Positions 4,678 through 52,598 of a stretch of 64,000 nucleotides of DNA are shown piece by piece. Within the stretch, counting starts at the first letter, position 1. Each line of letters begins with the position of its first letter. The notes under the pieces were generated by a model, which was not told where the DNA came from, ran no database searches, and was given only the letters and a program-made list of their open reading frames with translations. Origin of the DNA: an uncultured Chlorobiota bacterium (GTDB lineage Bacteria; Bacteroidota; Ignavibacteria; UBA10030; UBA6906); the NCBI GenBank assembly GCA_900696645.1, contig CAADGV010000024.1, positions 64,912 through 128,911 on the forward strand, read 5' to 3'. A program made the translations under genes and the position numbers.

Positions 4678-5778
4678 ATGTCAAAGATTACAGTTCATCT
4701 TGCGCAAACTGTCGACCGTTCGTACCGGATTGAAGTGAAGCCGGGGGCGCTTGATAGCCTCGCTGCGTTCATTCTACGCCAACGTCGCGGGTCGAAAGTC
4801 TTTATCATAACTGACTCCAACGTTGAGATGTTGGTGGGAAGAAAGATTCAGAGAAAGATGTATGAAGCGGGTCTCGAGACGCTGCTGCTGAGTTTTCCTG
4901 CAGGCGAGAAGTCAAAGAACCAGCGTATTGTTCATGCTCTGCATACGCAACTCCTTGCCGGTGATATTCGCCGGGATAGCCTCATTGTCGCCCTTGGTGG
5001 CGGCGTTGTGGGGGATGTTGCAGGTTACGTTGCCGCGACAATCTCGAGGGGAGTCGCCTTCATTCAAGTGCCGACAACGCTGCTCTCGCAAGTCGACAGC
5101 AGCGTCGGCGGCAAGGTTGGCATCAATCATCCTCGCGGAAAGAACCTGATCGGAGCATTTCATCAGCCGATGGCGGTATTTGTTGACCCCGATGTGTTGA
5201 GAACCCTGCCGCAACGCGAATTCTGCAGCGGCCTTGCTGAAGTGGTAAAGATTGCCGCCGCTCTTGACAGACGATTGTTTCAGTTTCTTGAACGAAATGC
5301 CCATCGTGTGTCGAAATCAAATCCGAAACTTCTGACAGAGATCATTTCGCGATGTGTTGCGCTCAAGGCGGCTGTTGTCGAGGCGGATGAGTTCGAATCA
5401 GGATTGCGAAGGTCGCTCAATCTCGGCCACACAATCGGCCACGCCATTGAATCGTCAACGAACTATTCCATCAATCACGGGGAAGCTGTGGCTATCGGCC
5501 TTGTTACGGAATCGACGGTTGCTCATCGGATGGGATTGCTTTCTTCACGTGAACTTGACAGACTCATCTCGCTTCTGAAAAAGCTGGGCCTGCCGACAGG
5601 TATGCCGCAGCTTCGCAACACAACGAAGTTTTTCTCTTCATTGTCTGCGGACAAGAAATCCGTCGGGGGGCGTGCAAAGTACGTGTTGCTCTCCGCAATC
5701 GGAAGCTGTGTTATAGGTGTCGACGTGTCGACGACTCTTGTTCAGAACGTGGTGATGGAAAGCAGGCGAGTTCGCTGA
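4678..5778 (+). CDS. aroB: 3-dehydroquinate synthase
   Basis: near-identical blocks to E. coli AroB (LGGGVVGDVAGYVAAT, VPTTLLSQVDSSVGGKVGINHPRGKNLIGAFHQP). Confidence 0.9.
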   Translation: MSKITVHLAQTVDRSYRIEVKPGALDSLAAFILRQRRGSKVFIITDSNVEMLVGRKIQRKMYEAGLETLLLSFPAGEKSKNQRIVHALHTQLLAGDIRRDSLIVALGGGVVGDVAGYVAATISRGVAFIQVPTTLLSQVDSSVGGKVGINHPRGKNLIGAFHQPMAVFVDPDVLRTLPQREFCSGLAEVVKIAAALDRRLFQFLERNAHRVSKSNPKLLTEIISRCVALKAAVVEADEFESGLRRSLNLGHTIGHAIESSTNYSINHGEAVAIGLVTESTVAHRMGLLSSRELDRLISLLKKLGLPTGMPQLRNTTKFFSSLSADKKSVGGRAKYVLLSAIGSCVIGVDVSTTLVQNVVMESRRVR

Positions 5779-7232
5779 TGATTATTGTGTCGATAACGGG
5801 ACCCGGAATGAAGGATGCGCTTGGACAGATTGCCGCCTCATCTCAATATGCGGACATGTTCGAATTGCGTCTTGATATGATTCAGGAGCCGCCTCTCGGC
5901 ATGCTGATGGCGGCAACCGGCAAGCCGATTATTGCCACATGTCGACCTGATTGGGAGGGCGGTGAATTTCGTGAAACGGAATCAGAACGGGCCGAAATTC
6001 TTCATGCAGCAGCGGAACTCGGCGCAGCGTACGTTGATATTGAACTGAATGCAGATGCAGGAATTATACGCAGACTTCACGGCGACGGGCGTCGTCTCAT
6101 TCTCTCCTATCATCACAACGGGAAAGGCAAGCTTGATATAGCAAGAATGTACAGGCGCATGAAATCGCCTCACGCACATGTATTGAAGCTTGCATACACT
6201 GCGGAAGATTGTGCTGATATAAAGTACGCATTCGAGTTTCTCCAACTTGCCAAACAGGACAAGCAAAGAGCTATAGCTATTGCCATGGGAGAATTCGGCG
6301 AGCCGACGAGAATTCTCTACAAGAAATTCGGAGGATGGGCAACGTACGCATCGGCGGGTATTGGCCTAAGTGCCGCTGCCGGACAAATTCCCGCTGCCGA
6401 ATTGAGAGAACTGTATCGATCTGAAAGAATCTCCGGCAAGACAAAGGTCTTCGGAGTGGTCGGTAATCCGTTGAAGCAAAGTAAAGGTATTTACCTGCAC
6501 AATCCGCTTTATCAGAAAGCTAAGAAGGATGCCGTGTATTGCAGATTTCAAGTGAGGGATCTGAATTCGTACATGAAGCGTGTGGCGCCGGTGTTGAACG
6601 GTTTCAGTGTTACAATTCCTCACAAGCAATCGATCATCAAGTATCTGGATCGAATTGATCCGACAGCTAAAGCCATCGGTGCCGTGAATACAGTTATGCG
6701 CAAAGCGGGCAGGTTGTATGGAACAAACACGGACGCTCCGGGCGCTCTTGATGCCATAGAAAACGTACTGAAGGTCAAAGGAAAGAGCATGCTGATTGCC
6801 GGGGCCGGCGGAGCGGCTCGTGCAATTGCATATGAAGCAAAACAACGCGGAGCAAAGATTTTCTTGACTAACAGAACCGAATCAACAGGACGGAAACTTG
6901 CTACGGAATTCAACGTGGATTTTGTTTCAAAGACCGAGCTTCTTCGTGCCGCACGAAAGGGTGTACGATATGATATTATTGTCAACGCCACATCAGTAGG
7001 TATGACGCCGCATGTGAATGCATCACCTCTTCCCAAATCTATTCTCAAAAAGGCAATCGTGTTCGATGCAGTGTACAATCCTCCTATGACGAAATTGTTA
7101 CGGGATGCAAAGAATGCAGGCGCTATGATTGTTCAAGGGACAGAGATGTATTTCAATCAGGCGGCGCTGCAGTTTGAATTGTACGCGGGCGTGAAGCCCG
7201 GAATCTCAACAATGAGGAAAATCCTTTCATAA
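5778..7232 (+). CDS. bifunctional 3-dehydroquinate dehydratase (type I) / shikimate dehydrogenase fusion
   Basis: 484 aa; N half resembles type I DHQase; C half has shikimate dehydrogenase signatures (VVGNPLKQSKGIYLHNPLY, Rossmann GAGGAARAIAYEA); 4-nt overlap with aroB stop. Confidence 0.75.
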   Translation: MIIVSITGPGMKDALGQIAASSQYADMFELRLDMIQEPPLGMLMAATGKPIIATCRPDWEGGEFRETESERAEILHAAAELGAAYVDIELNADAGIIRRLHGDGRRLILSYHHNGKGKLDIARMYRRMKSPHAHVLKLAYTAEDCADIKYAFEFLQLAKQDKQRAIAIAMGEFGEPTRILYKKFGGWATYASAGIGLSAAAGQIPAAELRELYRSERISGKTKVFGVVGNPLKQSKGIYLHNPLYQKAKKDAVYCRFQVRDLNSYMKRVAPVLNGFSVTIPHKQSIIKYLDRIDPTAKAIGAVNTVMRKAGRLYGTNTDAPGALDAIENVLKVKGKSMLIAGAGGAARAIAYEAKQRGAKIFLTNRTESTGRKLATEFNVDFVSKTELLRAARKGVRYDIIVNATSVGMTPHVNASPLPKSILKKAIVFDAVYNPPMTKLLRDAKNAGAMIVQGTEMYFNQAALQFELYAGVKPGISTMRKILS

Positions 7233-8812: not shown

Positions 8813-10168
8813 ATGGCTGGAAACACATACGGAACACAATTCAGAATCACAACGTTTGGCGAAAGCCACGGCCGTGCAATCGGCGTTGTTATGGATGGCG
8901 TACGGCCCGGACTGCCGATTGATACGGATTTCATTCAGAAGGAACTCGATCGTCGCCGCCCCGGACAAAGCAAGGTCACAACTGCGCGCAATGAGTCTGA
9001 TGCAGTTGAAATTCTCAGCGGGGTATTTGAAGGAAAAACTACCGGCACGCCGATCTGCATGATCATCTGGAACAAAGACCAGCAGTCAAAGCCGTATGAA
9101 AAGATCAAGGAGTTGTTTCGTCCCGGTCATGCCGGATACACGTATCTCGCCAAGTACGGAGTAAGCGATTATCGGGGCGGCGGACGTTCATCAGGCAGGG
9201 AAACAGCATCGCGGGTTGCCGCGGGAGCTGTTGCCAAATCTCTCCTCGCGAAGCGGGGCATTCATATTCTTGCGTACACAAAAGAAGTCGCGGGCATCGG
9301 AGGTCGAAGGATCAATCCCGACTTCATCGAGAAGAATCCACTTCGCGCCGCCGATCCTGAAGCAGCAAGAAAAATGGAGCGCAAAATCTTACAAGCGAAA
9401 ACAGACGGCGACTCGGTCGGCGGAATTGTTGAAATAATTGTGAAGAATGTTCCCGTCGGGCTCGGCGAGCCGGTGTTCGACAAGCTCGAAGCAGATCTCG
9501 CGAAAGCGCTTATGTCGATCGGGGCGATCAAGGGATTTGAAGTAGGGAATGGCTTTGAGGCTGCGCGCCTAAACGGGAGTGAGAACAACGACTCGATGTA
9601 TTTCGATAAGAAATCCCGTCGTGTACGCACAAGAACAAACAATGCCGGCGGTATTTCCGGTGGCATTTCCAACGGCGAAGACATTGTTCTGCGAATCGCC
9701 GTTAAACCTCCATCATCCATCCTCAAGAAACAGCGAACAGTCACGGTGAAAGGAAGGGCAGCGACAATTTCCGTTGAAGGCCGCCACGATCCGTGCATCT
9801 GTCCCCGCGTAGTGCCCGTTGCCGAATCAATGGTAGCCCTCACGCTACTCGACCATCTTACCCGCCAACAAATCTTGAGAAGCAAAACGACCTTGCAGGC
9901 GTTGAGGGATGATATCGATCTGCTTGACCATAACATCCTTTTGTTGATTGCCGAGCGGCAGAGATTTGTCGAGCAGGTTGGAATTCTGAAAAAGAAAAAA
10001 GGCAGGAACATTCACGATGCAGGGCGTGAGAAACAGATTCTTGCAAAACAGCTTGCTGCAGGCACCGCACTCGGGCTGGACCAAGAATTCGTGAGAGAAA
10101 TTTGTTCGGCTATCTTCAATCTTGCAAAATCGACACAGCGAAAGCTCAACGCCGGCTTGTTGAAGTAA
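8813..10168 (+). CDS. aroC: chorismate synthase fused to a C-terminal AroQ-type chorismate mutase domain
   Basis: N-terminal MAGNTYGTQFRITTFGESHGRAIG matches AroC; last ~90 aa (LQALRDDIDLLDHNILLLIAERQRFVEQVGILKKKKG...REKQIL) match the AroQ chorismate mutase helix pattern; 451 aa vs ~360 for AroC alone. Confidence 0.85.
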   Translation: MAGNTYGTQFRITTFGESHGRAIGVVMDGVRPGLPIDTDFIQKELDRRRPGQSKVTTARNESDAVEILSGVFEGKTTGTPICMIIWNKDQQSKPYEKIKELFRPGHAGYTYLAKYGVSDYRGGGRSSGRETASRVAAGAVAKSLLAKRGIHILAYTKEVAGIGGRRINPDFIEKNPLRAADPEAARKMERKILQAKTDGDSVGGIVEIIVKNVPVGLGEPVFDKLEADLAKALMSIGAIKGFEVGNGFEAARLNGSENNDSMYFDKKSRRVRTRTNNAGGISGGISNGEDIVLRIAVKPPSSILKKQRTVTVKGRAATISVEGRHDPCICPRVVPVAESMVALTLLDHLTRQQILRSKTTLQALRDDIDLLDHNILLLIAERQRFVEQVGILKKKKGRNIHDAGREKQILAKQLAAGTALGLDQEFVREICSAIFNLAKSTQRKLNAGLLK

Positions 10169-11083: not shown

Positions 11084-12772
11084 ATGCGGGAACTTCTTGT
11101 TGTTCTGAATACCCGGGCGCAGAGTTTCCTGAAGCATGCATTTGAGTTCCGGTGGCAGAGTCTTGTGCAAAACCTGTCGTCACTTCTCATCTTCGGCGGA
11201 TTCACTATCGCCGTGTTCTTCATATCACGGAGCGTAACCGACTACGCAATGTCGCAAGCACATATCGGTCTGTTTCTCTTTCACCGGTTTCTTTCGATGC
11301 TGCTGTATGTTTTCTTCGTGACCGTTAATGTCGGAAACATGATTGTCTCGTTCGGCACACTGTACCGCTCGCAAGAAGTCGGATTCCTGATGTCATTGCC
11401 AATCTCTCATGCCAAAATCTTTCTCATCAAATTCGTTGATAATTTCTTCTACAGCTCAAGCACGCTGACACTGATCGGGCTTGCCGTGCTGTTGGGCTAC
11501 GGCTCGTATTTCGACATGCCGTGGTATTTCTACTTTGTTGTAATTTTTCTTGTGATGCTCCCCTTCATGTTGATATCGGGAATTCTGGCTGTCACAGCAT
11601 TGATGCTTTTGATACGAATCGGAGCCCGCATCGGGTTTCGACTGCTGCTCATGCTTCTTGTTGGTGCGTATGGGGCTTCCGTGTATGCGTATTTTCGTAT
11701 CACCAACCCGATGGCGTTGGTGGAAGATGTGATGAAGCTATGGCCTAACGTCAACGACTATCTCGGTTATCTCGATCCGCAGTTTGTGAAGTTTCTGCCG
11801 AATCACTGGGTTGCGGAGTTTCTGTATTGGTCGATCAACGGTGATCCTGCACGTGCCGTACCGTACCTTGCGCTTCTTGTGTTAACGATGCTGGGTTTGA
11901 TTGCCGTCGCAGGACTAATGGCAAGAAAGTTCTACTACGAAAGCTGGCTTGCAGTTTCGAATTTGCAGGCGGCAAAAAACAATTCCGCTTCAAAGCCGCC
12001 AGGCCTGTTCAGACTTGACGGCAAGAACCTGTTTTCTCCAAAGCTTGACGCTTTGATGCGGAGGGACTTCTGGCTGTTCTTTCGGGAGCCGAGTCAATGG
12101 CTGCATCTTGTGCTGATGTTTGTTCTGCTTCTGATGTTCGTCGTGTCCGTTGCGACGATGAATATCCGGTTTGACAGTCCCGGGATGGAGACGAACGCAT
12201 TTCTCATTGTCTTTCTGTTCAACGGATTTCTGGTAGCTTCGATCTGTCTCAGGTTCATTTTTCCTTTAGTGAGTTTGGAGGGAGATGCTTTCTGGGTAAT
12301 CCGATCGGCTCCGATCGTGATGAACAGACTCTATTGGTACAAAGTTCTTGGATCGATGGGCGTTGTGCTGGCACTTGCGGAAACACTGACGATTAGTTCA
12401 GTTTTCTTGTTCTCGCAAAGCGTCTATCTTACCACTATCGCTGCAATCATGATGTTTTTTGTTGTCTTGACGCTCGTAGGGACCAACGTTGCTGCGGGTG
12501 GGTACTTCGCTGTGTTCAAAGAGAAGAATCCCATGCGCATCGCGTCGTCACAGGGTGCATCGCTTACGTTTCTTGGCAGTATGGTGTACCTTACGTTCGT
12601 GTCGACATTGCTCGTGATTCCCTTCAACCGGTATTTTCAGCAATCGGAGTTTGCCGGCATGGCAACCCCGCATTGGATGCACTGGTCCTTCATCCTGATC
12701 GGACTGATTTCGATGGCGATTTTTTTTCTTTCGTCGTTCATCGGGGTGAAGGCATTGCGGCGCAGCGGATAA
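11084..12772 (+). CDS. ABC-2 type transporter permease (polytopic membrane protein)
   Basis: 562 aa, at least 10 hydrophobic segments, starts 3 nt after the ATPase stop. Confidence 0.6.
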   Translation: MRELLVVLNTRAQSFLKHAFEFRWQSLVQNLSSLLIFGGFTIAVFFISRSVTDYAMSQAHIGLFLFHRFLSMLLYVFFVTVNVGNMIVSFGTLYRSQEVGFLMSLPISHAKIFLIKFVDNFFYSSSTLTLIGLAVLLGYGSYFDMPWYFYFVVIFLVMLPFMLISGILAVTALMLLIRIGARIGFRLLLMLLVGAYGASVYAYFRITNPMALVEDVMKLWPNVNDYLGYLDPQFVKFLPNHWVAEFLYWSINGDPARAVPYLALLVLTMLGLIAVAGLMARKFYYESWLAVSNLQAAKNNSASKPPGLFRLDGKNLFSPKLDALMRRDFWLFFREPSQWLHLVLMFVLLLMFVVSVATMNIRFDSPGMETNAFLIVFLFNGFLVASICLRFIFPLVSLEGDAFWVIRSAPIVMNRLYWYKVLGSMGVVLALAETLTISSVFLFSQSVYLTTIAAIMMFFVVLTLVGTNVAAGGYFAVFKEKNPMRIASSQGASLTFLGSMVYLTFVSTLLVIPFNRYFQQSEFAGMATPHWMHWSFILIGLISMAIFFLSSFIGVKALRRSG

Positions 12773-13026
12773 ATCATCGGCCTTTGCGTCCGTTTCCGTT
12801 TGAATTCAAATCCTTTTTTGTGTTACTTCATTCGGTGAGCAGGTTTCATCATCACATCTTGCATCATCGGTCGGCGACGAGTCAACGAAACTGTGCGTTC
12901 GCCGATTCATCCGGGCCAACTCGAACAATATTGCAAGGCTGCGTTGCGGGCCGCCAAGCGCCTGAGGCCGACATCCCGTCAATAATCGCAAGAATCACAC
13001 CGGGTCATCCGAAAAACGTTAATCGC

Positions 13027-15042
13027 ATGATTTTTGTTCTACACCACTTGAACTTCCTTCGACGCAGAATTCCGGGAATAGTTCTTCTGCTCATTGTGCT
13101 GTTTACCTCCGCCGAAAGTCAGCAAACGGTTGAGCGCTCGCAAGAGGTAGAGCAACTGTTCAAGAATGCGCTTTCGCTCTACACGAGCGGGAATTTTGCT
13201 GAAGCATCTACTGCATTTAATCGGCTCGCCGAGCGTTCGCCTCTGCATCATCGTACCACCGCAGCAATTGTGATGAAGGCAAAAGCTGACCTGTATGGCG
13301 GGCGATACAGTGACGCTGAAACTGCGCTGCAGAAACTCTTCACACAATTTCCGTCGAGTTCCTATAAGGGTGATGCCGAATACACCTTGGGACTTGTGCA
13401 ACTGAAAAAGCAATCATATTCCGATGCGCTACGGGAGTTCGTCAAGTGTTGGCGAACAATTGCCAACCGCCCGAATCACCTTCAGTTGTACAGATTATTG
13501 ATGGCAACGATTGATTCAACAATTGATGAATATGTTTCTCTGCAAGACTTGGAGCAAGTTATTGCCGAAACACCCGGCGGCAGCGAGCGAGAGTTTCTGT
13601 TGTTGGGATTGGCGAGAAGACAGTTTGATGAACGCAGATACGCGGAAGCAACCGCAACACTGATTCAGATAGAAAAATCCGGCCAAGCTCTTGTGTTCCC
13701 TGCGCGCCTGAAGGAACTTCAGCAAGTCCTTGCGGCGCCCAGGGAAGTCCGAATCGGCGTTCTTCTCCCGCTTATGAAAAGAAGCACTCAACCAACCCGG
13801 GAGAAGGAAGTGGGAACCGGATTGCTGGACGGCATTTCATTTGCAATGCAAGAATACTCACGGGGACATCATGCACGAAAGGTGACGCTGGATGTTCGCG
13901 ACACGGAAGGTGACCCTGCGACCGCCGCGGCAATGTTCAAAGAACTGGCCTCCGACGGCTCTCTGCTTAGCGTGATCGGGCCGGCATTTTCTTCGGAAGC
14001 CATTGCAGTGAGAAGATTAGCCAACGAATTCCGGATTCCCACCATTACTCCAACAGCAAATGCCAACGGCATTGCCGAGTCCGGTTTTTTCGTTTTTCAA
14101 GCAAATCCGGATTTTGATACGCGGGCCAAAGCAATGGCATCGTATGCAGTGAAAACGCTGCAGTTCAAACGACTTGCGGTATTGGCGCCGAAGGAACAAA
14201 CAAGCAAGAATCTGGCGGAAGCATTTGCCCGCGACGCGCAACAGTTGGGTGCCACTGTTATTACAACGGAATGGTACGACAGAGGCGCTGCCGACCTGAC
14301 GCAGCAATTGATCAGTGTTCGGAGGAAGGCGAACACGTTTGCGCAGGAACCGTATCTGAATTTTGAGAAACTCACACAGAAGGATATTGGCAAGCTGAGC
14401 AAACTCGGTGTCTCCGCAAAAGTAATGGATAGCTTGATAGTACGCCGCAGCGTTGCCAATGCTATTTCTCTGCTCGGGTCCGAAGCCCGGTCGGTCTTGA
14501 CCGAGAACGAAATTCAATATGTCCTGAGCGATCCCAGAATTGACAGCTTGCAGCGGATCGTTACGACGGTGGAGGGCTTATACTGTCCGATCAGTTCACC
14601 GGTGGAAATCGGCGTGATCTCTTCCCAGCTTGCATATTTCGGAATTGAAACGACACTGCTGGGTTCCGGCGAGTGGAACAGCATTGCCGAACTCAATGCA
14701 AACAAACGGTACGTGAGAAGTGTGCTGTTCGAGTCCGATTCATATATCGATACAAAAGATATGCGTGTTCGGGACTTCACGTACAAATTCTCAAATATGT
14801 TTGGCAGAATGCCGGGTAGGAATGACTTCTACGGCTATGATGTGACTCGACTTGTGCTCTCGGCGCTCGACCAAGGTTTGTCAACGCGGGAAGAGTTGCG
14901 CGATGCACTTGCGCAAGTCAGATCATTCCCCACTCTTCACGCAAAAATATCGCTTGCCCAGCGGCGAGTGAATTCCTGGCTGCATGTTCTGCAGTATGCA
15001 AATGAAACAATTCAACGGGTTGCCGAACTCGAAGTCGAATGA
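13027..15042 (+). CDS. secreted TPR + type I periplasmic-binding-fold protein (LpoA-like architecture)
   Basis: signal peptide (MIFVLHHLNFLRRRIPGIVLLLIVLFTSA), TPR-like helical N-terminal region, C-terminal LivJ/ANF-receptor-like fold; start placed at ATG 13027 because the upstream 118 codons overlap the permease and look like read-through. Confidence 0.5.
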   Translation: MIFVLHHLNFLRRRIPGIVLLLIVLFTSAESQQTVERSQEVEQLFKNALSLYTSGNFAEASTAFNRLAERSPLHHRTTAAIVMKAKADLYGGRYSDAETALQKLFTQFPSSSYKGDAEYTLGLVQLKKQSYSDALREFVKCWRTIANRPNHLQLYRLLMATIDSTIDEYVSLQDLEQVIAETPGGSEREFLLLGLARRQFDERRYAEATATLIQIEKSGQALVFPARLKELQQVLAAPREVRIGVLLPLMKRSTQPTREKEVGTGLLDGISFAMQEYSRGHHARKVTLDVRDTEGDPATAAAMFKELASDGSLLSVIGPAFSSEAIAVRRLANEFRIPTITPTANANGIAESGFFVFQANPDFDTRAKAMASYAVKTLQFKRLAVLAPKEQTSKNLAEAFARDAQQLGATVITTEWYDRGAADLTQQLISVRRKANTFAQEPYLNFEKLTQKDIGKLSKLGVSAKVMDSLIVRRSVANAISLLGSEARSVLTENEIQYVLSDPRIDSLQRIVTTVEGLYCPISSPVEIGVISSQLAYFGIETTLLGSGEWNSIAELNANKRYVRSVLFESDSYIDTKDMRVRDFTYKFSNMFGRMPGRNDFYGYDVTRLVLSALDQGLSTREELRDALAQVRSFPTLHAKISLAQRRVNSWLHVLQYANETIQRVAELEVE

Positions 15043-15048
15043 CAGTAT

Positions 15049-15750
15049 ATGGTCCACGAACCCTCTCCTCACCACACAAAAATCAAAGACTGGCCTGAAG
15101 CCGAACGGCCGCGCGAGAAACTCCTGCAACGCGGAGCACATGCGTTAAGTGATGCGGAACTGCTGGCCATTCTGATTCGTGTCGGTTCAGGGAAAGCGAC
15201 GGCAGTAGATCTTGCCCGATCCATCCTCGTTCAGGAAAAGAACCTGCATGCTATTGCAGGGAAAACACCGCAAGAGCTGATGCGAGTGAAGGGAATCGGC
15301 GAAGCGAAAGCTGTGGAACTGCTTGCCGCATTTGAGATTGGGAGGAGGGTGCAGGGAATGAACGGAGCGGAACGTATCATCGTTCATTCACCCGAGGATG
15401 TTGCCCGGTTCATGATTCCCCGACTCAGGGACAGGAAGTACGAGTCATTCTGGGTGTTGCTTCTGGATTCGAAGAACGGATTGATGCATGACAAGGAACT
15501 GACCGTGGGAACGCTGAACGCAAGCCTTGTTCATCCTCGTGAAGTGTTCAAGTTGGCGATTGATTGGGTGGCCGCGGCCGTCATCGTGGTGCACAATCAT
15601 CCAAGCGGGAACCGTGAACCAAGCTCGGAGGATTTGAGCATCACCCGGCAATTGGTGGAGGCAGGGAAGATTGTCGGCATTCCTCTTCACGATCATGTAA
15701 TTGTCGCGGGTGATGCATATACAAGTTTTGCAGAACGAGCCCTCTTGTAG
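15049..15750 (+). CDS. radC: RadC-family JAB/MPN domain protein
   Basis: N-terminal helix-hairpin-helix region (ELLAILIRVGSGK), JAMM motif HNHPSG..EPS.ED, 233 aa. Confidence 0.8.
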   Translation: MVHEPSPHHTKIKDWPEAERPREKLLQRGAHALSDAELLAILIRVGSGKATAVDLARSILVQEKNLHAIAGKTPQELMRVKGIGEAKAVELLAAFEIGRRVQGMNGAERIIVHSPEDVARFMIPRLRDRKYESFWVLLLDSKNGLMHDKELTVGTLNASLVHPREVFKLAIDWVAAAVIVVHNHPSGNREPSSEDLSITRQLVEAGKIVGIPLHDHVIVAGDAYTSFAERALL

Positions 15751-15784
15751 CGATAAAAGCCGTGATTGCCGTGCCCGAATCTTG

Positions 15785-15813
15785 TTGACATCGTAGGCCA
15801 TTTTGATTATTAT
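15785..15813 (+). promoter_or_regulatory. sigma70-type promoter TTGACA-17-TATTAT upstream of the lipoprotein gene
   Basis: consensus -35 and near-consensus -10 hexamers with 17-nt spacer, about 50 nt upstream of ATG 15865. Confidence 0.4.
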
Positions 15814-15864
15814 TGATACGAGAATTTACTGCTGCACCCTATCCCTAATAAATGGAGGTTTATC

Positions 15865-16140
15865 ATGAAGGAAAAAAGAGTCGGTCTTTCTGCTCTGTTG
15901 GTGGCTTTCCTTTTTGCCTCCTCATTGTTTGTCGCCGGCTGTTCAGGTAAAGCCGATGCCGAACAGATGAGGCAACTGAACAGTCTGAAAGAAGAGTATG
16001 CTGCTCTGCAACGTGAAGTGGCATCCAAGGAGCAGGCGAAATCCAATCTCCAGCGCGAGATTGCCGATGCCAATGCAAAACTGAAGAAATGCAGCGACGA
16101 TCAAGAGATCGTCAAGCAACGTCTCGCGAACTGGAAATAA
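15865..16140 (+). CDS. small coiled-coil outer-membrane lipoprotein (Lpp-like), C-terminal Lys
   Basis: lipobox LFVAGC, heptad-rich 60-aa helix, ends ...LANWK; strong RBS ggagg. Confidence 0.6.
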   Translation: MKEKRVGLSALLVAFLFASSLFVAGCSGKADAEQMRQLNSLKEEYAALQREVASKEQAKSNLQREIADANAKLKKCSDDQEIVKQRLANWK

Positions 16141-16152
16141 GGAGAACTGAAC

Positions 16153-16878
16153 ATGAAAACCATTAGAATGTATGCAATCCTTGTTCTCGTTGTCGTCTTC
16201 GCAGGCGTTTCGTTTGCACAGGAAATGTCAAAGAGTGAATGGGAACAGGAAGTCAACCGGTACACGCAATTGCGTAACGAACTACAGACAAAACTCCAGC
16301 AACTGAACAACGAGATCTCCGGTATGCAGGGTCAAGTAACGACTCTGAATGGTGATATTAACAAGTGTATGGACGCGTTGTATGCGCTTGTCGGTTCGGA
16401 CGCGACGCAGGCTGCCGCCTATCGTGCAGAGATTGAAGCGGCTGAACAAAAAGCTGCCGAATTGATGCGCCTCTCGGATGCGGATCTGTTTGCCCGAAAA
16501 AGCGAAGTAGATGCCCTTGCCGCGAAGGCGAAGCAATTTCGTACCAATAAGCTTTCGCTGATTCCCGAATTTTCCGATAAGCTCGATGGACTGGATCAGT
16601 CAATCGCAAGTCTGCAACGCACGATTGCAGGTTATGGACGCGGTGAATATACTGTTGTCAGGAATGATAATCTGTGGAACATCGCGAAGAAGCGTGATAT
16701 CTATAACAACGCATGGTTGTGGCCGAAAATCTGGCAGGCCAATACCGATAAGATCAAGAATCCAGATCTGATCTATCCGAACCAGCGATTCTCGGTTCCG
16801 GGTGGCAGCGCCCTTGATGCAAACGAAAAGGCTGCGGCAAACCGGTACTATGCGAAGAAACGGCAAGAGGGAGCTTAA
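16153..16878 (+). CDS. secreted coiled-coil protein with C-terminal LysM peptidoglycan-binding domain
   Basis: signal peptide, long coiled-coil, LysM motif YTVVRNDNLWNIAKK...IYPNQRFSVP; 13 nt after the lipoprotein gene. Confidence 0.65.
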   Translation: MKTIRMYAILVLVVVFAGVSFAQEMSKSEWEQEVNRYTQLRNELQTKLQQLNNEISGMQGQVTTLNGDINKCMDALYALVGSDATQAAAYRAEIEAAEQKAAELMRLSDADLFARKSEVDALAAKAKQFRTNKLSLIPEFSDKLDGLDQSIASLQRTIAGYGRGEYTVVRNDNLWNIAKKRDIYNNAWLWPKIWQANTDKIKNPDLIYPNQRFSVPGGSALDANEKAAANRYYAKKRQEGA

Positions 16879-16907
16879 GAATATTCTTGCTTGAGGATGT
16901 ACACACA

Positions 16908-16949
16908 ACCCTCTTTCCCTCGTCAAGCGGGGAAGGGGGTTTTGTATTT
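16908..16949 (+). terminator. probable rho-independent terminator after the LysM gene
   Basis: imperfect GC-rich hairpin ccctctttccct...ggggaaggggg followed by ttttgtattt. Confidence 0.45.
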
Positions 16950-16990
16950 GATGAGAGTAACATGAAGTTGAACACTGTCAAGGGAGTAGT

Positions 16991-17977
16991 TTGGTAGAAA
17001 AGAAAATACGTCTTGAAGGTGTCGATACACTGGGCCTGCTTGGCCTTCATGATGCAAATCTTCGAATTCTGGAGAACAAGTTCGACGCGACAATTCATAT
17101 ACGCGGGGAAGCGGTGACTGTACGTGGAAGCCAAGAGGAAGTAGAGCAAGTGGAGAAGGTGTTCAAGGAATTGATCTTCCTGCTGAACAGAAACAGCACG
17201 CTTTCTACAAACGATGTTGAGACGGTCGTGGATCTTGTCACTGCGAATGGAGAGCCCGCACTGCCCAAGAACATTGCATCGACCTTCAGCCGGGAAGAGC
17301 TTGATTCCGTCGTTCTCTACACAAAGAATCAGATCATCCGCGCGAAAACGCCGGGCCAGCGTGACTATCTCAAATCAATGCGGAAGAATGATATTGTTTT
17401 TGCGGTAGGGCCGGCCGGTACAGGTAAAACCTACCTTGGGGTGGCGCTCGCGGTGGCAAGCCTCAAGAACAATGAAATCACCAAGATTGTTTTGACGAGA
17501 CCGGCGGTCGAGGCCGGTGAAAGTCTTGGTTTTCTCCCGGGCGATCTTAAGGAGAAAATTGATCCGTACCTGCGCCCGTTGTACGATGCGCTTGACGATA
17601 TGATTCCCGGGGAGAAACTGAGGACGTATCTTGAGAAGCGAGTCATTGAAATTGCGCCGCTTGCGTACATGCGGGGCAGGACGCTCAACAATGCGTTTGT
17701 TATTCTCGACGAAGCGCAAAACGCCTCGGCAATGCAAATGAAAATGTTCCTGACGCGTCTCGGACCGAATTCACGCGCCATCATTACCGGTGATGTGACG
17801 CAGATAGACCTTCCGACAAAGTCCGCATCCGGTCTTGTGCAAATTCAGGAGGTGCTGCGGGGGGTTGAGGGAATCGGCTTCGTGTACTTCGACAGAAATG
17901 ATGTCGTGCGCCACCGTCTCGTCAAGGACATTATTGATGCGTACGACAAGTATCAGAATGGAGAAAAGCAGGTGTAA
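16991..17977 (+). CDS. phoH: PhoH-like ATPase
   Basis: Walker A GPAGTGKTYLGVALA, PhoH block RIILTRPAVEAGE..GFLPGD, 328 aa. Confidence 0.85.
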   Translation: MVEKKIRLEGVDTLGLLGLHDANLRILENKFDATIHIRGEAVTVRGSQEEVEQVEKVFKELIFLLNRNSTLSTNDVETVVDLVTANGEPALPKNIASTFSREELDSVVLYTKNQIIRAKTPGQRDYLKSMRKNDIVFAVGPAGTGKTYLGVALAVASLKNNEITKIVLTRPAVEAGESLGFLPGDLKEKIDPYLRPLYDALDDMIPGEKLRTYLEKRVIEIAPLAYMRGRTLNNAFVILDEAQNASAMQMKMFLTRLGPNSRAIITGDVTQIDLPTKSASGLVQIQEVLRGVEGIGFVYFDRNDVVRHRLVKDIIDAYDKYQNGEKQV

Positions 17978-34673: not shown

Positions 34674-35177
34674 ATGAACGCAAAAGTTCTGATCTTAAAT
34701 CAGAATTACGAGCCAATGAGTGTGATTAACGTGAAGAAGGCAATCATCCTGTTGTATCTCGGGAAAGCGGAATTGATCGAAGCGTACGACGGACGGGCCG
34801 TACATTCCGTGTCGACCACGATGCCCTTTCCAAGCATCGTGAAGTTGTCGTTCTATGTCAAAGTCCCGTTCAAGCGAATCATTCTCTCGCGGAAAAACAT
34901 CCTCCGGCGTGACGGACACAGATGCCAGTATTGCGGCCGGGGTGACCTGACGCTCACACTCGATCATGTGTGGCCGGTTTCCCGTGGAGGCGAAGACGCC
35001 TGGGAGAATCTCGTCTGCGCATGCGTGAAGTGTAACAACAAGAAGGGCGACCGGACTCCGGATGAAGCCGGCATGCCGTTGTTGCGCAAACCCATGAGGC
35101 CGAATCACGTCTCGTTCATCAGCCACTTTGTCGGAAGGATGGATGAACGATGGAAGCCGTATCTCTTTCTCCAATAA
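34674..35177 (+). CDS. stand-alone HNH endonuclease family protein
   Basis: HNH motif with zinc ligands (CQYCG...LDHVWPVSRGG..WENLVCACVKCNNKK), 167 aa. Confidence 0.7.
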   Translation: MNAKVLILNQNYEPMSVINVKKAIILLYLGKAELIEAYDGRAVHSVSTTMPFPSIVKLSFYVKVPFKRIILSRKNILRRDGHRCQYCGRGDLTLTLDHVWPVSRGGEDAWENLVCACVKCNNKKGDRTPDEAGMPLLRKPMRPNHVSFISHFVGRMDERWKPYLFLQ

Positions 35178-43184: not shown

Positions 43185-46100
43185 CTAAAACCCGTTAGGG
43201 TTTTCCTTTCCCTGTATCACGATGAGCTTCAGTGTCTTCGTCGCGCCGAATTCCGGCAACTCGATGTGGGCGATGTACACACCGCTGCCAACTTGCAGCC
43301 CGAATTCATTCTGTAAATCCCACTCAACAAACTGCGAGCCTTCTGCTCCGTCGTCCTTCACCAGCGTTCGTACAAGCTGCCCCGCAAGATTGAAGACGCG
43401 GATCGTCGCCTTCGCAGGAAGCCGGGTGAACGTCACGCGGCGTTTCGATAATCCTGTCGGCGTAACGGCTTCTCCGTAGTAGGGATTGGGAACAACGTTG
43501 ATTGCAGCAATATCAGCGCGGATTTGATTCTTATCGTTGAAAACAGGGCCTTGCGGCGTTATTTCTTTGATGTCACCGTGCCTGATTTCATGGAATTTGA
43601 TGAACTTGATCACAGTTCCTACAGGAGGAGGTAGGCCGTCGTTGTCTTTGTCGGCGATCTGAATTCCCCACAAAGCATTCCCTTGCTCATCGGGACTTTG
43701 TGATGCTCTGAAGACTTCCGTCAGAAGGCCTGATACTCCTATCGAATCATTTCCGCCAACCGGATAGCGAATATCCGTAACGTGAATCGGCTCGAAGATC
43801 TTGAACAGCGTGTCCGTGTACAGCACGCCGTACGGCGTCACGTTCCACGTGTCGGGAGTATTACCCGAATCCCTAAACGACGCAATTACCTGAACCGGAA
43901 CATCATCCGGTCCGCGCCCGACATCCCACACCGAAAACGGAACCTTCACTGCCTTCGATTGGATATTGAGAACAATCATCCGCACAGCATAACTTCCCAC
44001 ACCGTCAAACCTGATCTCATAATCCCGCTGCGTAGTGCCGACACCGTTCAACGAGCGAAGTGTTCGCCGCTGACTGAGAACCGTGTAGTTCGAATTCGGA
44101 TTGTCGGGGCCGTACGCGTTGTTGCCCCGTTCATCCAGCACATAGCGCAACCCTACGGGCGGAATGCCGATTGTGACATCAAATCCCCCTTCTGCAACCT
44201 TATAAGGAACCCTGCCGCTGAGGTCGGTAATGTTGGAGTAGATGGATTTTCCGCTTGTGGCGTTGATGATGCTCCACTTGTACGATTTGCTTGATGTTGT
44301 TGTGTCGAAACGAACATGATACGAGCTACCAGTTTGCCCCCGCGGATTGTAGATAACAGGAACAACAACCGCGTCGCTGTTGCCGACGATATTCTTGACG
44401 AGAACCGTATCTCCAACATTGTAGGGGTAGAGGGCTCCAGGCGTTTTTGATTGGGGGATGACAGTGATAATCTCAGGGGCACTTTCTATACTGCGGATGA
44501 TGGTTGTGTTATCCGTTGTGTAGTTGTAGGCCGTTACCGCAAAATGGTACTGCTGGCCGTTGACAAGCGATCTGTTCCAGATTGCATCCTGAGTGATCAG
44601 CAGACTCCGCTGAATGCCGCTATCAGTTCCGTATTGTACAGGCCTGAAGTAGATATCGCCTGCCTGTTCATCAAACACTTCTTGAGAAATGGTTTTGACA
44701 TTATTTGCGAGATCAAACGTTACAAGTCGCTTCGCGTTCGTCAGATCCGTTGCACCATCGGGGACCTGATATATATTGTATCCCTCAAACCTGTATCCTC
44801 CGAAGAGGAGAGGGACTTCGGTTTCGGCAATGCTCGCCGAATCCAAACTCCAATCCAGCAATACCTGCCGGTCAAGTCCGAATGCCTTGACCTTCGGCGG
44901 GGCCGGGGCTTTCGGCTGATTGAAGCCGTTGTTGTAAGCGAGTTGCGCCGCTTTGTCGTTGTACTTCATGACTTTGATGCTGGAGATGTTGTCGGTTCCC
45001 AGCCCGCCGACAACAGCAAGCACAACCTCCTGTGTGTCGCCCAACGCCATTGTGAAGGGACCCGACGAGAGCGTAACTTCCCTGTCTCCGGGAAGCAGCG
45101 GCGATCCATCAAGCCAGCCGTAATTCAGAACCGGGTCGCCGTGAGCCCAATACTTCGAGGCTGTTTGAGTTGTCGGATTGATAAGCGGAGCAGGATCCGG
45201 CGGCCCGACAGGTGACGGCGGCAACCCGCGGAGTACCTGATACCATCCATTCGCCGCAAAATTCCCGCCTCCCGGTGGTTGATAGCGTGAACCATTTCGT
45301 ACATGCCGGTCGTAATAAACGAATGATGTCATCGGGAGATTGATGTAGCCCGGACCTTTTGTTTTCAGATTGACGATGGCAAAATCCGACGCGTCATCAA
45401 TTCCATTCTTATTCCGATCCTGACCTGCAACACCGGGAACTACAGGGCCATGAATGAAATCAAAACCAACTGCCGGAGGAGGAAGGAGGAAGTTGTTGAA
45501 CAAACGATCTGTTACGGCAGCGTTGTACACATAGCCAAGATTCAGCAGCGTATCGCAAGCGGCATAATCGTCGGTGGCGTCGCCGATATCCGGGTCCGAC
45601 ATTTGCGCGATGTACATGCTGTCGATCCGGGCCGCGGCAGACGTTGATGACAAGCCTTTGTAAATGAGCCGGAACCGCTTGTACACGACGTTCGCCAATG
45701 CGTCTGTACGGTTGTAGCCCCAGACTGTTCCCTGCAACTCCATACCGACGGGCTGTGAAGAGAACGGCCGCGAAGCAATCACGTCGTTACATACATACCA
45801 CAATACCATATCGGCATCGGCGTAACCGGGAGTCTCGCCATCGAGTTTGCCATTGCGGTTCAGGTCTTCGCCGGGGTCAAGCACACCGTTGCGGTTGACA
45901 TCTTCGCCCCAATCAAGCACGCCATTGTTTGCGCCGACAAGCTGGCCGTTCTGATCAAGATAGCCGGTGTCATAAAACGGAGCGCCGAATTCCCACGGCC
46001 ATTCCGCCCAATCCTTTTGGTAGGCGTTCCGAAGCGCGATGATGTCGGCTGTTGTCACGTTAGTTGGGATTTTTCGGTAGGTTTCTGCCGCATCCTGCCG

Positions 46101-46529
46101 CAAATCTGTTTTACGAAAATCGCGCCGAATTCTATACATGCGAACAGTACTGTCATTAGGATTCTGCACGCTGCTTGTCCGAAGTCCGAGAATTGCTCCC
46201 TGCCGCATTCCGCTTGTGAAGTACTGTCCGTTCACGTGAAGCCGGTTGATGTTGCCGTCACGCAATCTTCCTCCCCAAATCAGTCCCGAGGCAAACACAA
46301 TGTTCGATGTTCCTTTCGGGTAGAACATCCCTGCGCCGGAGAACAGGCCGCCGGGATATTCCTGATTGCCGTTTGAATTGTACCATCCGATCATTCTGTT
46401 GATGTTCAACGGAACAATTGTCGGAGTGCCGGCAATCCCCTCAGTCCCCGTCGGCAGAAATGGTTTGTCTTGCGAGATAAGAGTGAACGGCAGGATGAAC
46501 ACTACAGCTACAACAAGTAATCGCTTCAT
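43185..46529 (-). CDS. large secreted protein (1114 aa) with a T9SS C-terminal sorting domain
   Basis: signal peptide MKRLLVVAVVFILPF; calcium-binding-like D-rich repeats (DWGEDVNRNGVLDPGEDLNRNGKLDGE); C-terminal ~80 aa match the Por/T9SS CTD pattern (ATIRVFNLAGQLVRTL...GSGVYIAHIEL...KLIVIQ). Confidence 0.7.
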   Translation of the reverse strand: MKRLLVVAVVFILPFTLISQDKPFLPTGTEGIAGTPTIVPLNINRMIGWYNSNGNQEYPGGLFSGAGMFYPKGTSNIVFASGLIWGGRLRDGNINRLHVNGQYFTSGMRQGAILGLRTSSVQNPNDSTVRMYRIRRDFRKTDLRQDAAETYRKIPTNVTTADIIALRNAYQKDWAEWPWEFGAPFYDTGYLDQNGQLVGANNGVLDWGEDVNRNGVLDPGEDLNRNGKLDGETPGYADADMVLWYVCNDVIASRPFSSQPVGMELQGTVWGYNRTDALANVVYKRFRLIYKGLSSTSAAARIDSMYIAQMSDPDIGDATDDYAACDTLLNLGYVYNAAVTDRLFNNFLLPPPAVGFDFIHGPVVPGVAGQDRNKNGIDDASDFAIVNLKTKGPGYINLPMTSFVYYDRHVRNGSRYQPPGGGNFAANGWYQVLRGLPPSPVGPPDPAPLINPTTQTASKYWAHGDPVLNYGWLDGSPLLPGDREVTLSSGPFTMALGDTQEVVLAVVGGLGTDNISSIKVMKYNDKAAQLAYNNGFNQPKAPAPPKVKAFGLDRQVLLDWSLDSASIAETEVPLLFGGYRFEGYNIYQVPDGATDLTNAKRLVTFDLANNVKTISQEVFDEQAGDIYFRPVQYGTDSGIQRSLLITQDAIWNRSLVNGQQYHFAVTAYNYTTDNTTIIRSIESAPEIITVIPQSKTPGALYPYNVGDTVLVKNIVGNSDAVVVPVIYNPRGQTGSSYHVRFDTTTSSKSYKWSIINATSGKSIYSNITDLSGRVPYKVAEGGFDVTIGIPPVGLRYVLDERGNNAYGPDNPNSNYTVLSQRRTLRSLNGVGTTQRDYEIRFDGVGSYAVRMIVLNIQSKAVKVPFSVWDVGRGPDDVPVQVIASFRDSGNTPDTWNVTPYGVLYTDTLFKIFEPIHVTDIRYPVGGNDSIGVSGLLTEVFRASQSPDEQGNALWGIQIADKDNDGLPPPVGTVIKFIKFHEIRHGDIKEITPQGPVFNDKNQIRADIAAINVVPNPYYGEAVTPTGLSKRRVTFTRLPAKATIRVFNLAGQLVRTLVKDDGAEGSQFVEWDLQNEFGLQVGSGVYIAHIELPEFGATKTLKLIVIQGKENPNGF

Positions 46530-50746: not shown

Positions 50747-50834
50747 GCGGCAGCATTGCAACTGAGCCGCGCATTCGCTATTCTTCTTGCAACATCCCCT
50801 CACTGTACGCTTTCAGTTCTTTCCTCAATCATCT

Positions 50835-52598
50835 ATGTCAACGAACAACACAGCCGAGCTTGCCGCGCAAATAGTCTTGAAAGCATTTGAAGCCTTTGAT
50901 GCCGCATTCCGCTCCATCACGCGCCGGGCAAAGCGCCGGTTCGAACAGCGCGACTGGCAGGGAGGGAGGCATGATTCAATCGAGCGGCTTGATTCGTACG
51001 AGCGTTCGCTCGATCAAGTCGTCAGGAAGCTTGATACTTCAATCGGGTCGCCGGCGCGTGAAGCGTCGTTGTGGATTGCTGCCAAGCCCAAGTTTGCTGC
51101 GCTTCTGGCACTGCGCCACGACATCGGCCGCGGAGAAACGTACTTTAATTCTGTAACGAGAAGGATGCTGCGAACAGTCGGACTGAACCGTGATGTCGAA
51201 TTCTTCTACCTCCATCCGAAACCGCACGCGCCGTACGCCGAGGAGTCGGTGTACAGAAGGTACACGAAATCTGATGACACCGAAGTGTTGGTGAAAAGCA
51301 TCCTTGATGATTGTTCCTTCAGTGTTGCATTCGAGAATCTTGATCGTGACGCTGGCTTGGTCGCGCAGGAAATCGACCTGCATCTCTGGCCGGTTATCGG
51401 CGTCGAGAACTCCGGCACAATCGATGTCGTGAAAGCAATCTTCTATCGGAACAAGGAAGCGTACATCGTCGGGAGGATTAGCGCTGCCGACAAATCCTTC
51501 CCGCTTATCATTCCACTTGTCAACGGCGGGTCGGGAATTTATGTTGACACGGTTCTTTTGGAGAGCGCGGAGGCCGGTATCGTTTTCAGCTTTGCCTATT
51601 CCTATTTCTTTGTCGATATCGAACGATATGATGCGCTGATTCAATTTCTTCGTTCGATAGTACCGCAATCGCAAACGTCGGAATTGTACATCTCGCTCGG
51701 CTACAATCATCACGGCAAAACGGGATTCTATCGTGATCTTCACAGATACGTTCACGTCTCGAAAGAACAATTCGTGATTGCGCCCGGCTTGGAAGGAGCG
51801 GTCATGAATGTGTTCACGCTGCCGAATTACGGCTTCGTGTTCAAAGTCATTAAAGATCGTCCCTGCTTTCTTCGATCGAACAATCAAACCTCTAAGGTCA
51901 TCACACAGGAAAGAGTCCGCTACCAGTACGGATTTGTTTCACACCGCGACCCGGCAGGAAGAATGGTAAATACTCAGGAATTTGAGAATCTGCGCTTCAG
52001 AAAGAAGCGTTTCGCAAGCCAGGTGTTGGATGAATTTCAACAGGCGGTGACAAGAAACGTGACGATTCTTGAAGACTATGTCATCATCAAGCATGTTTAT
52101 GTGCAAAGAAAGGTAGTCCCTTTGCCTCTGTATTTTCGCAACGAAAGAAATCCTGAAGCTATTCGTCATGTGTTGATTGATTTCGGGTACTTTCTGAAGG
52201 ATCTGGCTGCGAGCGGTGTTTTCCCCAGCGATTTGTTCAACACGTGGAACTACGGCGTTACGCAATGGGGGCGTGTTGTTCTGTACGATTACGACGATGT
52301 GTTGCCCATCGAACGCATCAGGTTTCGCGAGAAGCCGCAGCCCCGGGACGAATTGCAGGAAACCGAGCCTGAGGAAAACTGGATTCTTGCAACCGAAGAT
52401 GATTTTTTCATGGATGAGATCGAGCGCTACTCCGGCATTCCACATCCGCTCAGAGGTGTGTTCAAGTCGGTTCACGGCGACCTCTACAAACTCACATTCT
52501 GGAAGAATCTGACCGAGAATCTTCGCAAGGGCGTGATCTTTGACGTCATTCCATACGATAGAGTCAAGCGCTTCCGGGAGCATGAGAGAATTATCTAA
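50835..52598 (+). CDS. aceK: isocitrate dehydrogenase kinase/phosphatase homologue
   Basis: multiple blocks matching E. coli AceK (FEQRDWQGG, AIFYRNKEAYIVGR, VFKVIKDRP, GRMVNTQEFENL, HVYVQRKVVPL, WGRVVLYDYDD); start set at ATG 50835. Confidence 0.8.
   Translation: MSTNNTAELAAQIVLKAFEAFDAAFRSITRRAKRRFEQRDWQGGRHDSIERLDSYERSLDQVVRKLDTSIGSPAREASLWIAAKPKFAALLALRHDIGRGETYFNSVTRRMLRTVGLNRDVEFFYLHPKPHAPYAEESVYRRYTKSDDTEVLVKSILDDCSFSVAFENLDRDAGLVAQEIDLHLWPVIGVENSGTIDVVKAIFYRNKEAYIVGRISAADKSFPLIIPLVNGGSGIYVDTVLLESAEAGIVFSFAYSYFFVDIERYDALIQFLRSIVPQSQTSELYISLGYNHHGKTGFYRDLHRYVHVSKEQFVIAPGLEGAVMNVFTLPNYGFVFKVIKDRPCFLRSNNQTSKVITQERVRYQYGFVSHRDPAGRMVNTQEFENLRFRKKRFASQVLDEFQQAVTRNVTILEDYVIIKHVYVQRKVVPLPLYFRNERNPEAIRHVLIDFGYFLKDLAASGVFPSDLFNTWNYGVTQWGRVVLYDYDDVLPIERIRFREKPQPRDELQETEPEENWILATEDDFFMDEIERYSGIPHPLRGVFKSVHGDLYKLTFWKNLTENLRKGVIFDVIPYDRVKRFREHERII

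Follow-up and report, generated by a model that had tools for sequence, protein, structure and literature searches.

A conserved lipoprotein-LysM gene pair of Ignavibacteria with a predicted coiled-coil junction between membrane and peptidoglycan

We analyzed a 64-kb stretch of DNA (64,000 nucleotides, hereafter the window) from an uncultured Chlorobiota bacterium (contig CAADGV010000024.1), in which two adjacent open reading frames (ORFs) lie on the forward strand: ORF1 (15865-16140), encoding a 91-residue lipoprotein precursor, and ORF2 (16153-16878), encoding a 241-residue secreted protein with a LysM domain. The two genes are an obligate conserved pair that makes up a single promoter-to-terminator unit, and one cysteine in the long helix of each protein is gained and lost together with its counterpart in the other. 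With moderate confidence, we propose that the two products form a parallel coiled-coil heterocomplex, stapled by a disulfide in most lineages, which would anchor a non-covalent peptidoglycan-binding domain to a membrane. The original prediction, made from the same sequence, had proposed that the two proteins together form an outer membrane-to-peptidoglycan tether resembling Braun's lipoprotein (Lpp). The general idea of a membrane-to-wall connector is strengthened by the obligate pairing and by covariation between the two proteins, while the Lpp-type covalent lysine link is not supported.

To define the gene pair, we scanned one genome per species, obtained 462 relatives of ORF2 and analyzed the best 80 loci, from Ignavibacteria and Kryptonia, in which ORF2 identity ranges from 60% down to 32%; counts of loci and orthologues below refer to this set. 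A small lipoprotein ORF of the ORF1 type lies directly upstream of the ORF2 homologue, on the same strand, in 80/80 loci (79 complete and one cut by a contig end), which is well beyond what chance would produce. In the window, ORF2 starts 12 nucleotides past the ORF1 stop, its ATG falling on the 13th base downstream. The two ORFs share a reading frame, with TAA and four codons (GGA GAA CTG AAC) between them; this common frame looks incidental, because the gaps in other loci, which range from -4 to 106 nucleotides, are often not multiples of three. A promoter-like site (TTGACA, 17 nucleotides, TATTAT) precedes ORF1 at 15785-15813 on the forward strand; it is a consensus match only, agreeing at 11 of 12 consensus positions, and is the sole such site in the interval 15000-17200. 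A strong intrinsic terminator follows ORF2 at 16910-16949 on the same strand, with an 11-bp stem and an 8-nucleotide loop (stem-loop 16910-16939) and then the T-run TTTTGTATTT. These two signals bracket exactly ORF1 and ORF2, each of which has its own Shine-Dalgarno sequence: GGAGG at 15854-15858 for ORF1, ending 6 nucleotides 5' of the ATG, and AGGAG for ORF2.

The pair is widespread and its setting is conserved. ORF1 homologues form at least 628 clusters and ORF2 homologues at least 1468, and the nearest database copies are found in metagenome-assembled genomes (MAGs) of Bacteroidota/Ignavibacteria. The order of genes around the pair is conserved as ABC-ABC-LpoA-like-RadC-pair-PhoH-MazG; loci L076, L077 and L080 have the pair outside this synteny. 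The MAG DATJXA01 carries two copies of the lipoprotein-LysM pair (L071 and L080), of which one has the usual RadC/PhoH neighbours and the other lies elsewhere in the genome, and both copies are devoid of the cysteine pair described below. Since the second copy comprises the pair only, ORF1 and ORF2 move together.

The translation of ORF1 reads MKEKRVGLSALLVAFLFASSLFVAGC, continuing with SGKADAEQ...LANWK and ending at TAA. Its signal peptide (residues 1-25) combines a basic n-region (MKEKR), a hydrophobic core and the lipobox L-F-V-A-G-C, so that the mature protein is predicted to begin with a lipidated cysteine, Cys26 (codon 15940-15942). A lipobox is present in 80/80 orthologues, with its Gly-Cys conserved, and residues G25, C26 and S27 are invariant in the ORF1 alignment (A1). 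In the AlphaFold2 model, the signal helix is followed by a disordered linker (residues 25-31) and then by a single uninterrupted helix of 59 residues (32-90), along which the heptad phase is unbroken. The earlier description of ORF1 as a lipobox protein with a single helix of about 60 residues ending in LANWK is thus confirmed, as is that of a secreted, helical LysM protein encoded thirteen nucleotides downstream. The mature protein has 63-68 residues in 79/80 orthologues, and in the source genome it contains one internal cysteine only, Cys76 (codon 16090-16092), at mature position 51 and heptad position d.

ORF2 begins with a signal peptide of the signal-peptidase-I type (residues 1-22), predicted to be cleaved between ...VSFA and QE. 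In its AlphaFold2 model (mean pLDDT, the predicted local distance difference test score, 85), the signal helix is followed by a long helix of 53 residues at 27-79 (16231-16389, forward strand), a three-helix bundle at 84-160 (helices 84-105, 109-131 and 133-160), a LysM fold at 164-215 (strand 164-167, helices 174-179 and 187-196, strand 212-215) and a C-terminal helix at 223-239. Membership of the LysM family is supported by Pfam PF01476, which matches residues 166-216 with 32.0 bits against a gathering cut-off of 20.9 (E = 1.2e-7); the domain as a whole (residues 164-216; 16642-16800, forward strand) is the predicted peptidoglycan-binding module. Its sequence and fold matches in the PDB are Kbp/YgaU, TsaP, SafA and the LysM of intimin, and the three-helix bundle has fold matches only to generic bundles (BAG, spectrin). 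Beyond LysM, no further Pfam or NCBIfam model matches ORF1 or ORF2 above threshold, and fold and sequence comparison with the PDB returned no full-length analogue, only generic coiled coils, three-helix bundles and LysM domains.

The only cysteine of mature ORF2 in the source genome is Cys72 (codon 16366-16368, forward strand), at mature position 50 and heptad position d of the long helix, in the context ...D(I/Y)xKC(M/L)D(E/A)LYALVG; it is invariant in a 38-sequence alignment (A2). Most ORF2 homologues have a second cysteine inside the LysM domain, in the motif RDCLWNI, where the window reads NDNLWNI (16663-16683), with Asn in place of Cys. Since lineages that lost the coiled-coil cysteines still have it, this LysM cysteine is probably a buried free thiol.

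The cysteines of the two long helices behave as one character. The core cysteine of ORF1 is present in 64/80 orthologues, always at mature position 51, and over the 80 loci both cysteines occur together in 63 and are jointly absent in 16, with ORF1 alone having one at a single locus and ORF2 alone at none (Fisher p = 6e-16). On the ORF2 tree, loci without the cysteines fall on at least four distinct branches, namely Kryptonia, L030, L017 and a large clade with ...LKSQQ endings. Of the newly retrieved ORF1 proteins, seven have no core cysteine, and the contigs of two of them were looked up as advance predictions, both of which came true: in P0172, where Leu replaces the ORF1 cysteine, the partner ORF2 reads ...DIKKAYDDLYALVG, with Ala at the cysteine site, and in P0176, where Met stands in ORF1, the partner reads ...DYKSGIDELYAMVG, with Gly at that site. 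P0172 represents a further lineage, so that joint presence and absence holds in at least five. The residue pairs that replace the cysteine pair (A/T, A/V, L/T, T/A, V/G, L/A and M/G) are small or hydrophobic, as expected of two residues in one core layer.

The two helices also fit each other geometrically. Cys76 of ORF1 and Cys72 of ORF2 both occupy heptad position d, 50 and 49 residues from the respective mature N-termini, and the heptad phases of the two proteins are offset by one residue, which matches the offset between the cysteines (51 versus 50). In a parallel coiled coil, cysteines that occupy corresponding d positions on neighbouring chains are turned towards one another, and an interchain disulfide forms readily between them. 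When mature ORF1 was aligned with the mature N-terminus of ORF2 by hhalign, the two were matched with a probability of 95% (E = 3e-8), cysteine on cysteine. To quantify inter-protein covariation, we calculated mutual information with average product correction for all ORF1 by ORF2 columns over 70 non-redundant pairs. The Cys-Cys pair ranks first among about 15,900 inter-protein column pairs, and the parallel in-register diagonal, taken with a margin of ±4 residues, accounts for 13 of the 50 highest-ranking pairs, where 1.9 are expected (p = 3e-8). With the cysteine columns removed, 10 of 46 top pairs are still in register. A second band of covariation (i+j ≈ 116-120) corresponds to helix 2 of ORF2 running antiparallel. 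Profile alignment, covariation and the common heptad phase thus converge on helix 1 of ORF2 as the proposed partner of the ORF1 helix.

These observations suggest the following architecture. ORF1 would be exported, lipidated on Cys26 and held in a membrane, with the inner leaflet of the outer membrane the more likely site. We favor the outer membrane because the residue at +2 after the lipid cysteine is Ser or Thr in nearly all 80 orthologues and Asp in none, and because the Lol pathway is general in Gracilicutes. The 59-residue helix of ORF1 would pair, parallel and in register, with the 53-residue N-terminal helix of a soluble periplasmic ORF2, presumably in a 1:1 stoichiometry and with additional contacts to the ORF2 return helix, and an interchain disulfide between Cys76 of ORF1 and Cys72 of ORF2 would lock this pairing in about 80% of lineages, the source genome included. 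Farther along ORF2, the three-helix bundle would lead to the LysM domain, which is predicted to grip the glycan strands of peptidoglycan non-covalently. The complex would thereby tie membrane to sacculus, much as Pal and Lpp do, with a helical part of about 8-9 nm, the lipid anchor and the wall-binding module residing on separate chains.

Several points speak against parts of this architecture. The 70 pairs that underlie the covariation are a small and phylogenetically structured sample, with incomplete control for phylogeny. The cysteine pair is missing from about 20% of the orthologous gene pairs, so a disulfide is not essential to function, and joint loss of the cysteines could be due in part to a lineage-wide loss of periplasmic disulfide formation rather than to a direct bond. 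At the one discordant locus, L011, ORF1 (5685-5954 of that locus) keeps its cysteine and ORF2 has Ser, encoded by TCT at 6199-6201; this codon is one transversion from TGT, and the discordance could mark an intermediate step in evolution or stem from an error in the assembly. The LysM domain nearest in sequence to that of ORF2 belongs to Kbp/YgaU, a protein that does not act as a wall tether. LysM domains can bind chitin oligomers too, a role that we set aside for ORF2 in view of the housekeeping context and the dedicated lipoprotein partner. The +2 rule is an E. coli rule from outside the phylum of Ignavibacteria, in which outer and inner membrane sites are not readable from sequence. Finally, an acidic stretch after the lipid cysteine (CSSxPD/SxEE) bears a faint likeness to the surface-export signal of Bacteroidota; if ORF1 were exported to the surface, it would be incompatible with a periplasmic partner.

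Among the alternatives, the one that survives best accepts the complex and assigns it another role: the pair may regulate or position peptidoglycan-remodelling or division enzymes, as a lipoprotein-anchored LysM scaffold comparable to NlpD, EnvC or DipM, and bear no mechanical load. We regard this as possible but unlikely. Several hydrolase regulators are built from a LysM domain and a coiled coil, and the three-helix bundle of ORF2 could be a protein-binding module; however, ORF1 and ORF2 contain neither a LytM/Peptidase_M23 domain, the hallmark shared by NlpD, EnvC and DipM, nor an amidase or other enzyme-related domain. Weak sub-threshold matches of the two proteins to EzrA, ZapB, DivIC, EnvC and TolA_bind_tri point in the same direction as this scaffold role, but the matches to division proteins are far below threshold and typical of coiled-coil noise. 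ORF2 contains no tetratricopeptide repeats (TPRs), and its score for the TolA_bind_tri domain of CpoB/YbgF (PF16331) is 17.2 bits, with the cut-off at 30.1. A gene that does contain TPRs (BamD/YbgF-like) lies two genes 5' of the pair, at 12673-15042 on the forward strand, where it is syntenic in 54/80 loci; its product also has a periplasmic-binding-protein fold and a sub-threshold LppC/LpoA match, and may be an envelope protein resembling activators of penicillin-binding proteins. The presence of this TPR and LpoA/LppC-like lipoprotein gene would suit a scaffold, but the synteny spans unrelated housekeeping genes (ABC transporter, RadC, PhoH, MazG) and carries little functional weight.

A second alternative, which we consider rather improbable, keeps the same complex and leaves ORF1 in the inner membrane, so that the pair would connect the wall with the cytoplasmic membrane or act as a spacer between the two. 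The sequence offers no proof of transfer by the Lol pathway, and a helix of about 8-9 nm fits either gap; the residue at +2, on the other hand, indicates the outer membrane by the E. coli rule, with the caveat of its origin outside the phylum, and the size and design of the pair are like those of known outer-membrane tethers.

The model of the original prediction, in which ORF1 is an analogue of Braun's lipoprotein whose C-terminal lysine is cross-linked by an L,D-transpeptidase and ORF2 is an accessory wall binder, fares worse, and we consider it very doubtful. The similarity in design is real: an LLAGC-SS-like lipobox, a short linker, a helix of about 60 residues and, in the source genome, a terminal lysine (Lys91, codon 16135-16137, forward strand). 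Conservation of this lysine in orthologues, which the original prediction had named as a check, is not observed. The last residue of ORF1 is K in only 39/80 orthologues, Q in 18, M in 13 and N in 10, and although the share of K rises to 85/121 in a second, more redundant database set, the closest relatives (72-76% identity) end in ...LAN, ...LSN or ...LANQ, and one clade continues past ...LANWK with GN, GM or GK, so that the lysine is not terminal there. Lysine is therefore the commonest ending, as the Lpp-type model would have it, yet half of the species-level orthologues do without it, and as a functional terminus it is not conserved.

Comparison with Lpp itself leads to the same result. ORF1 falls short of the curated Lpp/OprI models (23.2 bits against 43 for Ala_zip_lipo, NF040598, and 15.3 against 108 for PRK15396/NF011925) and has no match to Pfam LPP (PF04728) at E ≤ 1. 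When the ORF1-family profile was compared with the PDB, designed coiled coils and EnvC ranked above Lpp (E = 0.03). The EnvC match (PDB 8hd0, E = 1.8e-4) aligns the signal peptide, lipobox and helix of ORF1 with the N-terminal residues 16-90 of EnvC and does not involve a LytM/M23 domain. An hhalign comparison of the ORF1 family with E. coli Lpp did yield a probability of 96%, with ...QRLxN... aligned near the C-terminus, and some ORF1 members are named 'Lpp' automatically by Joint Genome Institute (JGI) pipelines. We nevertheless did not accept this match as a sign of membership in the Lpp family, since it is the signal peptide and lipobox that carry it, it contains a 13-residue gap, and both the curated models and the PDB ranking contradict it. 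Gene annotation and a motif scan, which covered the window and the retrieved flanks of related loci, found neither a gene nor a catalytic motif for a YkuD/ErfK-type L,D-transpeptidase in the window; one loose L,D-transpeptidase motif match was seen at locus L020. The window also contains no gene of the Pal or OmpA family. In a survey of tethers, Lpp was reported solely from a subclade of Gammaproteobacteria, and Pal and OmpA from Gracilicutes (bioRxiv 10.1101/2021.05.31.446380). ORF1 is thus Lpp-like in design and, as judged from its sequence, not a member of the Lpp family, and covalent linkage through lysine is not conserved across the ORF1 family. Because the evidence for an Lpp-type attachment fails at the lysine and at the family models, and the window itself has no transpeptidase gene, the link of the ORF1-ORF2 complex to peptidoglycan is most likely non-covalent, through the LysM domain of ORF2; a covalent link may operate, with low probability, in lineages whose ORF1 ends in Lys.

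We give very little credence to the last alternative, in which no bond joins ORF1 and ORF2, each cysteine forms a homotypic disulfide or none, and joint loss reflects lost periplasmic oxidative-folding machinery: co-loss could indeed follow a shared redox environment, many of the MAGs coming from anoxic sediments or groundwater, and L011 is discordant, but lineages without the cysteine pair keep the LysM cysteine of ORF2, the cysteine-less loci L017, L030 and L081 are nested among close cysteine-containing relatives, and the common heptad layer, the complementary replacements and the in-register covariation that persists without the cysteine columns all point to direct contact.

The remainder of the window is a housekeeping chromosomal block, with genes for the shikimate pathway, an ABC transporter, the TPR and LpoA/LppC-like lipoprotein, RadC, PhoH, MazG, tRNA synthetases, ScpAB and topoisomerase I. 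We set aside the gene neighbourhood as a clue to the function of the pair, since the synteny, although strong, spans this general block. Four other loci deserve mention. At 8813-10168 (forward strand), a fusion gene encodes chorismate synthase with a type II chorismate mutase domain at the C-terminus, and the surrounding shikimate cluster contains dehydroquinate (DHQ) synthase, a DHQase-shikimate dehydrogenase fusion and EPSP synthase. A small stand-alone HNH endonuclease gene (34674-35177, forward strand) is located between the genes of an HtrA-like protease and a class I (W/Y) tRNA synthetase. On the reverse strand, 43185-46529 encodes a 1114-residue ORF without a Pfam family, whose only match is a weak FlgD_ig-like one at the C-terminus (residues 1038-1085, E = 6e-4); this end could be a C-terminal sorting domain for type IX secretion on a large cargo protein. 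Finally, 50787-52598 (forward strand) encodes a full-length AceK (isocitrate dehydrogenase kinase/phosphatase) with both domains (E = 6e-87 and 4e-73), an enzyme known mostly from Proteobacteria.

Only a few of the systems by which diderm bacteria fasten the outer membrane to the wall are understood in detail, namely Lpp, Pal, OmpA, OmpM/SlpA and barrels with covalent attachment. In a full-text search of the literature, we found no description of the present lipoprotein-LysM pair, nor of one under the heading of disulfide-linked lipoprotein/peptidoglycan-binding complexes. Database entries for its members are called 'hypothetical', 'LysM domain-containing' or, automatically, 'Lpp', 'EnvC' or 'YgaU', and neither 'Lpp' nor 'EnvC' is supported by the evidence presented here. 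We tentatively suggest that Ignavibacteria and Kryptonia, class-level lineages of Bacteroidota represented by at least 460 species-level genomes, possess an undescribed outer membrane-to-peptidoglycan tether in which a lipoprotein helix of 64-68 residues and a LysM chain are joined by a parallel coiled coil and an interchain disulfide. If so, a fifth type would join Lpp, Pal, OmpA and OmpM among the tethers, and its conserved, class-wide two-chain module of coiled-coil junction, optional disulfide staple and LysM grip would be a new solution, in which the length of the ORF1 helix could set the width of the periplasm, an effect familiar from length variants of Lpp. It would further imply that small helical 'Lpp-like' lipoproteins outside proteobacteria can work without covalent attachment. 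The prediction is sharp at the level of single residues, since it specifies C76 of ORF1, C72 of ORF2 and their parallel, in-register orientation.

It is instructive to compare the pair with the systems that it most resembles. With Lpp of E. coli and OprI of Pseudomonas, ORF1 shares the small lipoprotein format and a short linker that leads into one helix of about 56-60 residues with uninterrupted heptads, of a length that fits the gap between membrane and wall, and the ORF1-ORF2 operon, like theirs, looks as if it encoded abundant proteins, with a strong promoter, Shine-Dalgarno sequence and terminator. In contrast, ORF1 has no detectable membership in their family, and the C-terminal lysine and YRK motif are not conserved in its own. 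ORF1 has a conserved internal core cysteine, which Lpp lacks, and is always accompanied by a LysM partner gene; its predicted state is a heteromer with a non-covalent link to the wall, whereas Lpp is a homotrimer.

Pal is alike in predicted function, combining a lipid anchor with a non-covalent peptidoglycan-binding domain in Gracilicutes. The likeness is functional only, as neither ORF1 nor ORF2 has an OmpA-family match in Pfam or NCBIfam. Pal is a single chain with an OmpA-like domain that works with Tol, whereas the pair would divide these tasks between separate chains, joined by a coiled coil and mostly by a disulfide, and use LysM instead. NlpD of E. coli and LipL71/LruA of Leptospira also combine a lipoprotein anchor with a periplasmic LysM domain, but in both the lipobox and LysM lie on one polypeptide, and NlpD adds a LytM domain that is absent here. 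Against the LipL71/LruA model (NF033163), ORF2 reaches 49.1 bits, far below the cut-off of 600, and aligns in the LysM region only (residues 166-217 with model positions 406-460).

TsaP and Kbp/YgaU contain LysM domains homologous to that of ORF2 by sequence and fold, and TsaP uses its own to fix an outer-membrane secretin to peptidoglycan. Outside LysM, however, their architecture is unrelated to that of ORF2, Kbp being a BON-LysM protein that binds K+, and neither of them is paired with a lipoprotein. The closest parallel in the division of labor is AtaA-TpgA of Acinetobacter, in which a protein anchored in the outer membrane is attached to the wall by way of a second protein, which is periplasmic and binds peptidoglycan (PMC12523085). 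The parts differ: the anchor is the barrel of a trimeric autotransporter rather than a lipoprotein, the N-terminal domain with which TpgA contacts AtaA is BamE-like, and the two form an A3B3 hexamer through electrostatic and hydrophobic contacts instead of a disulfide-stapled coiled coil (PMC12523085). AtaA-TpgA nonetheless provides a precedent for a membrane anchor and a peptidoglycan binder that are split over two proteins (PMC12523085), as we propose for ORF1 and ORF2.

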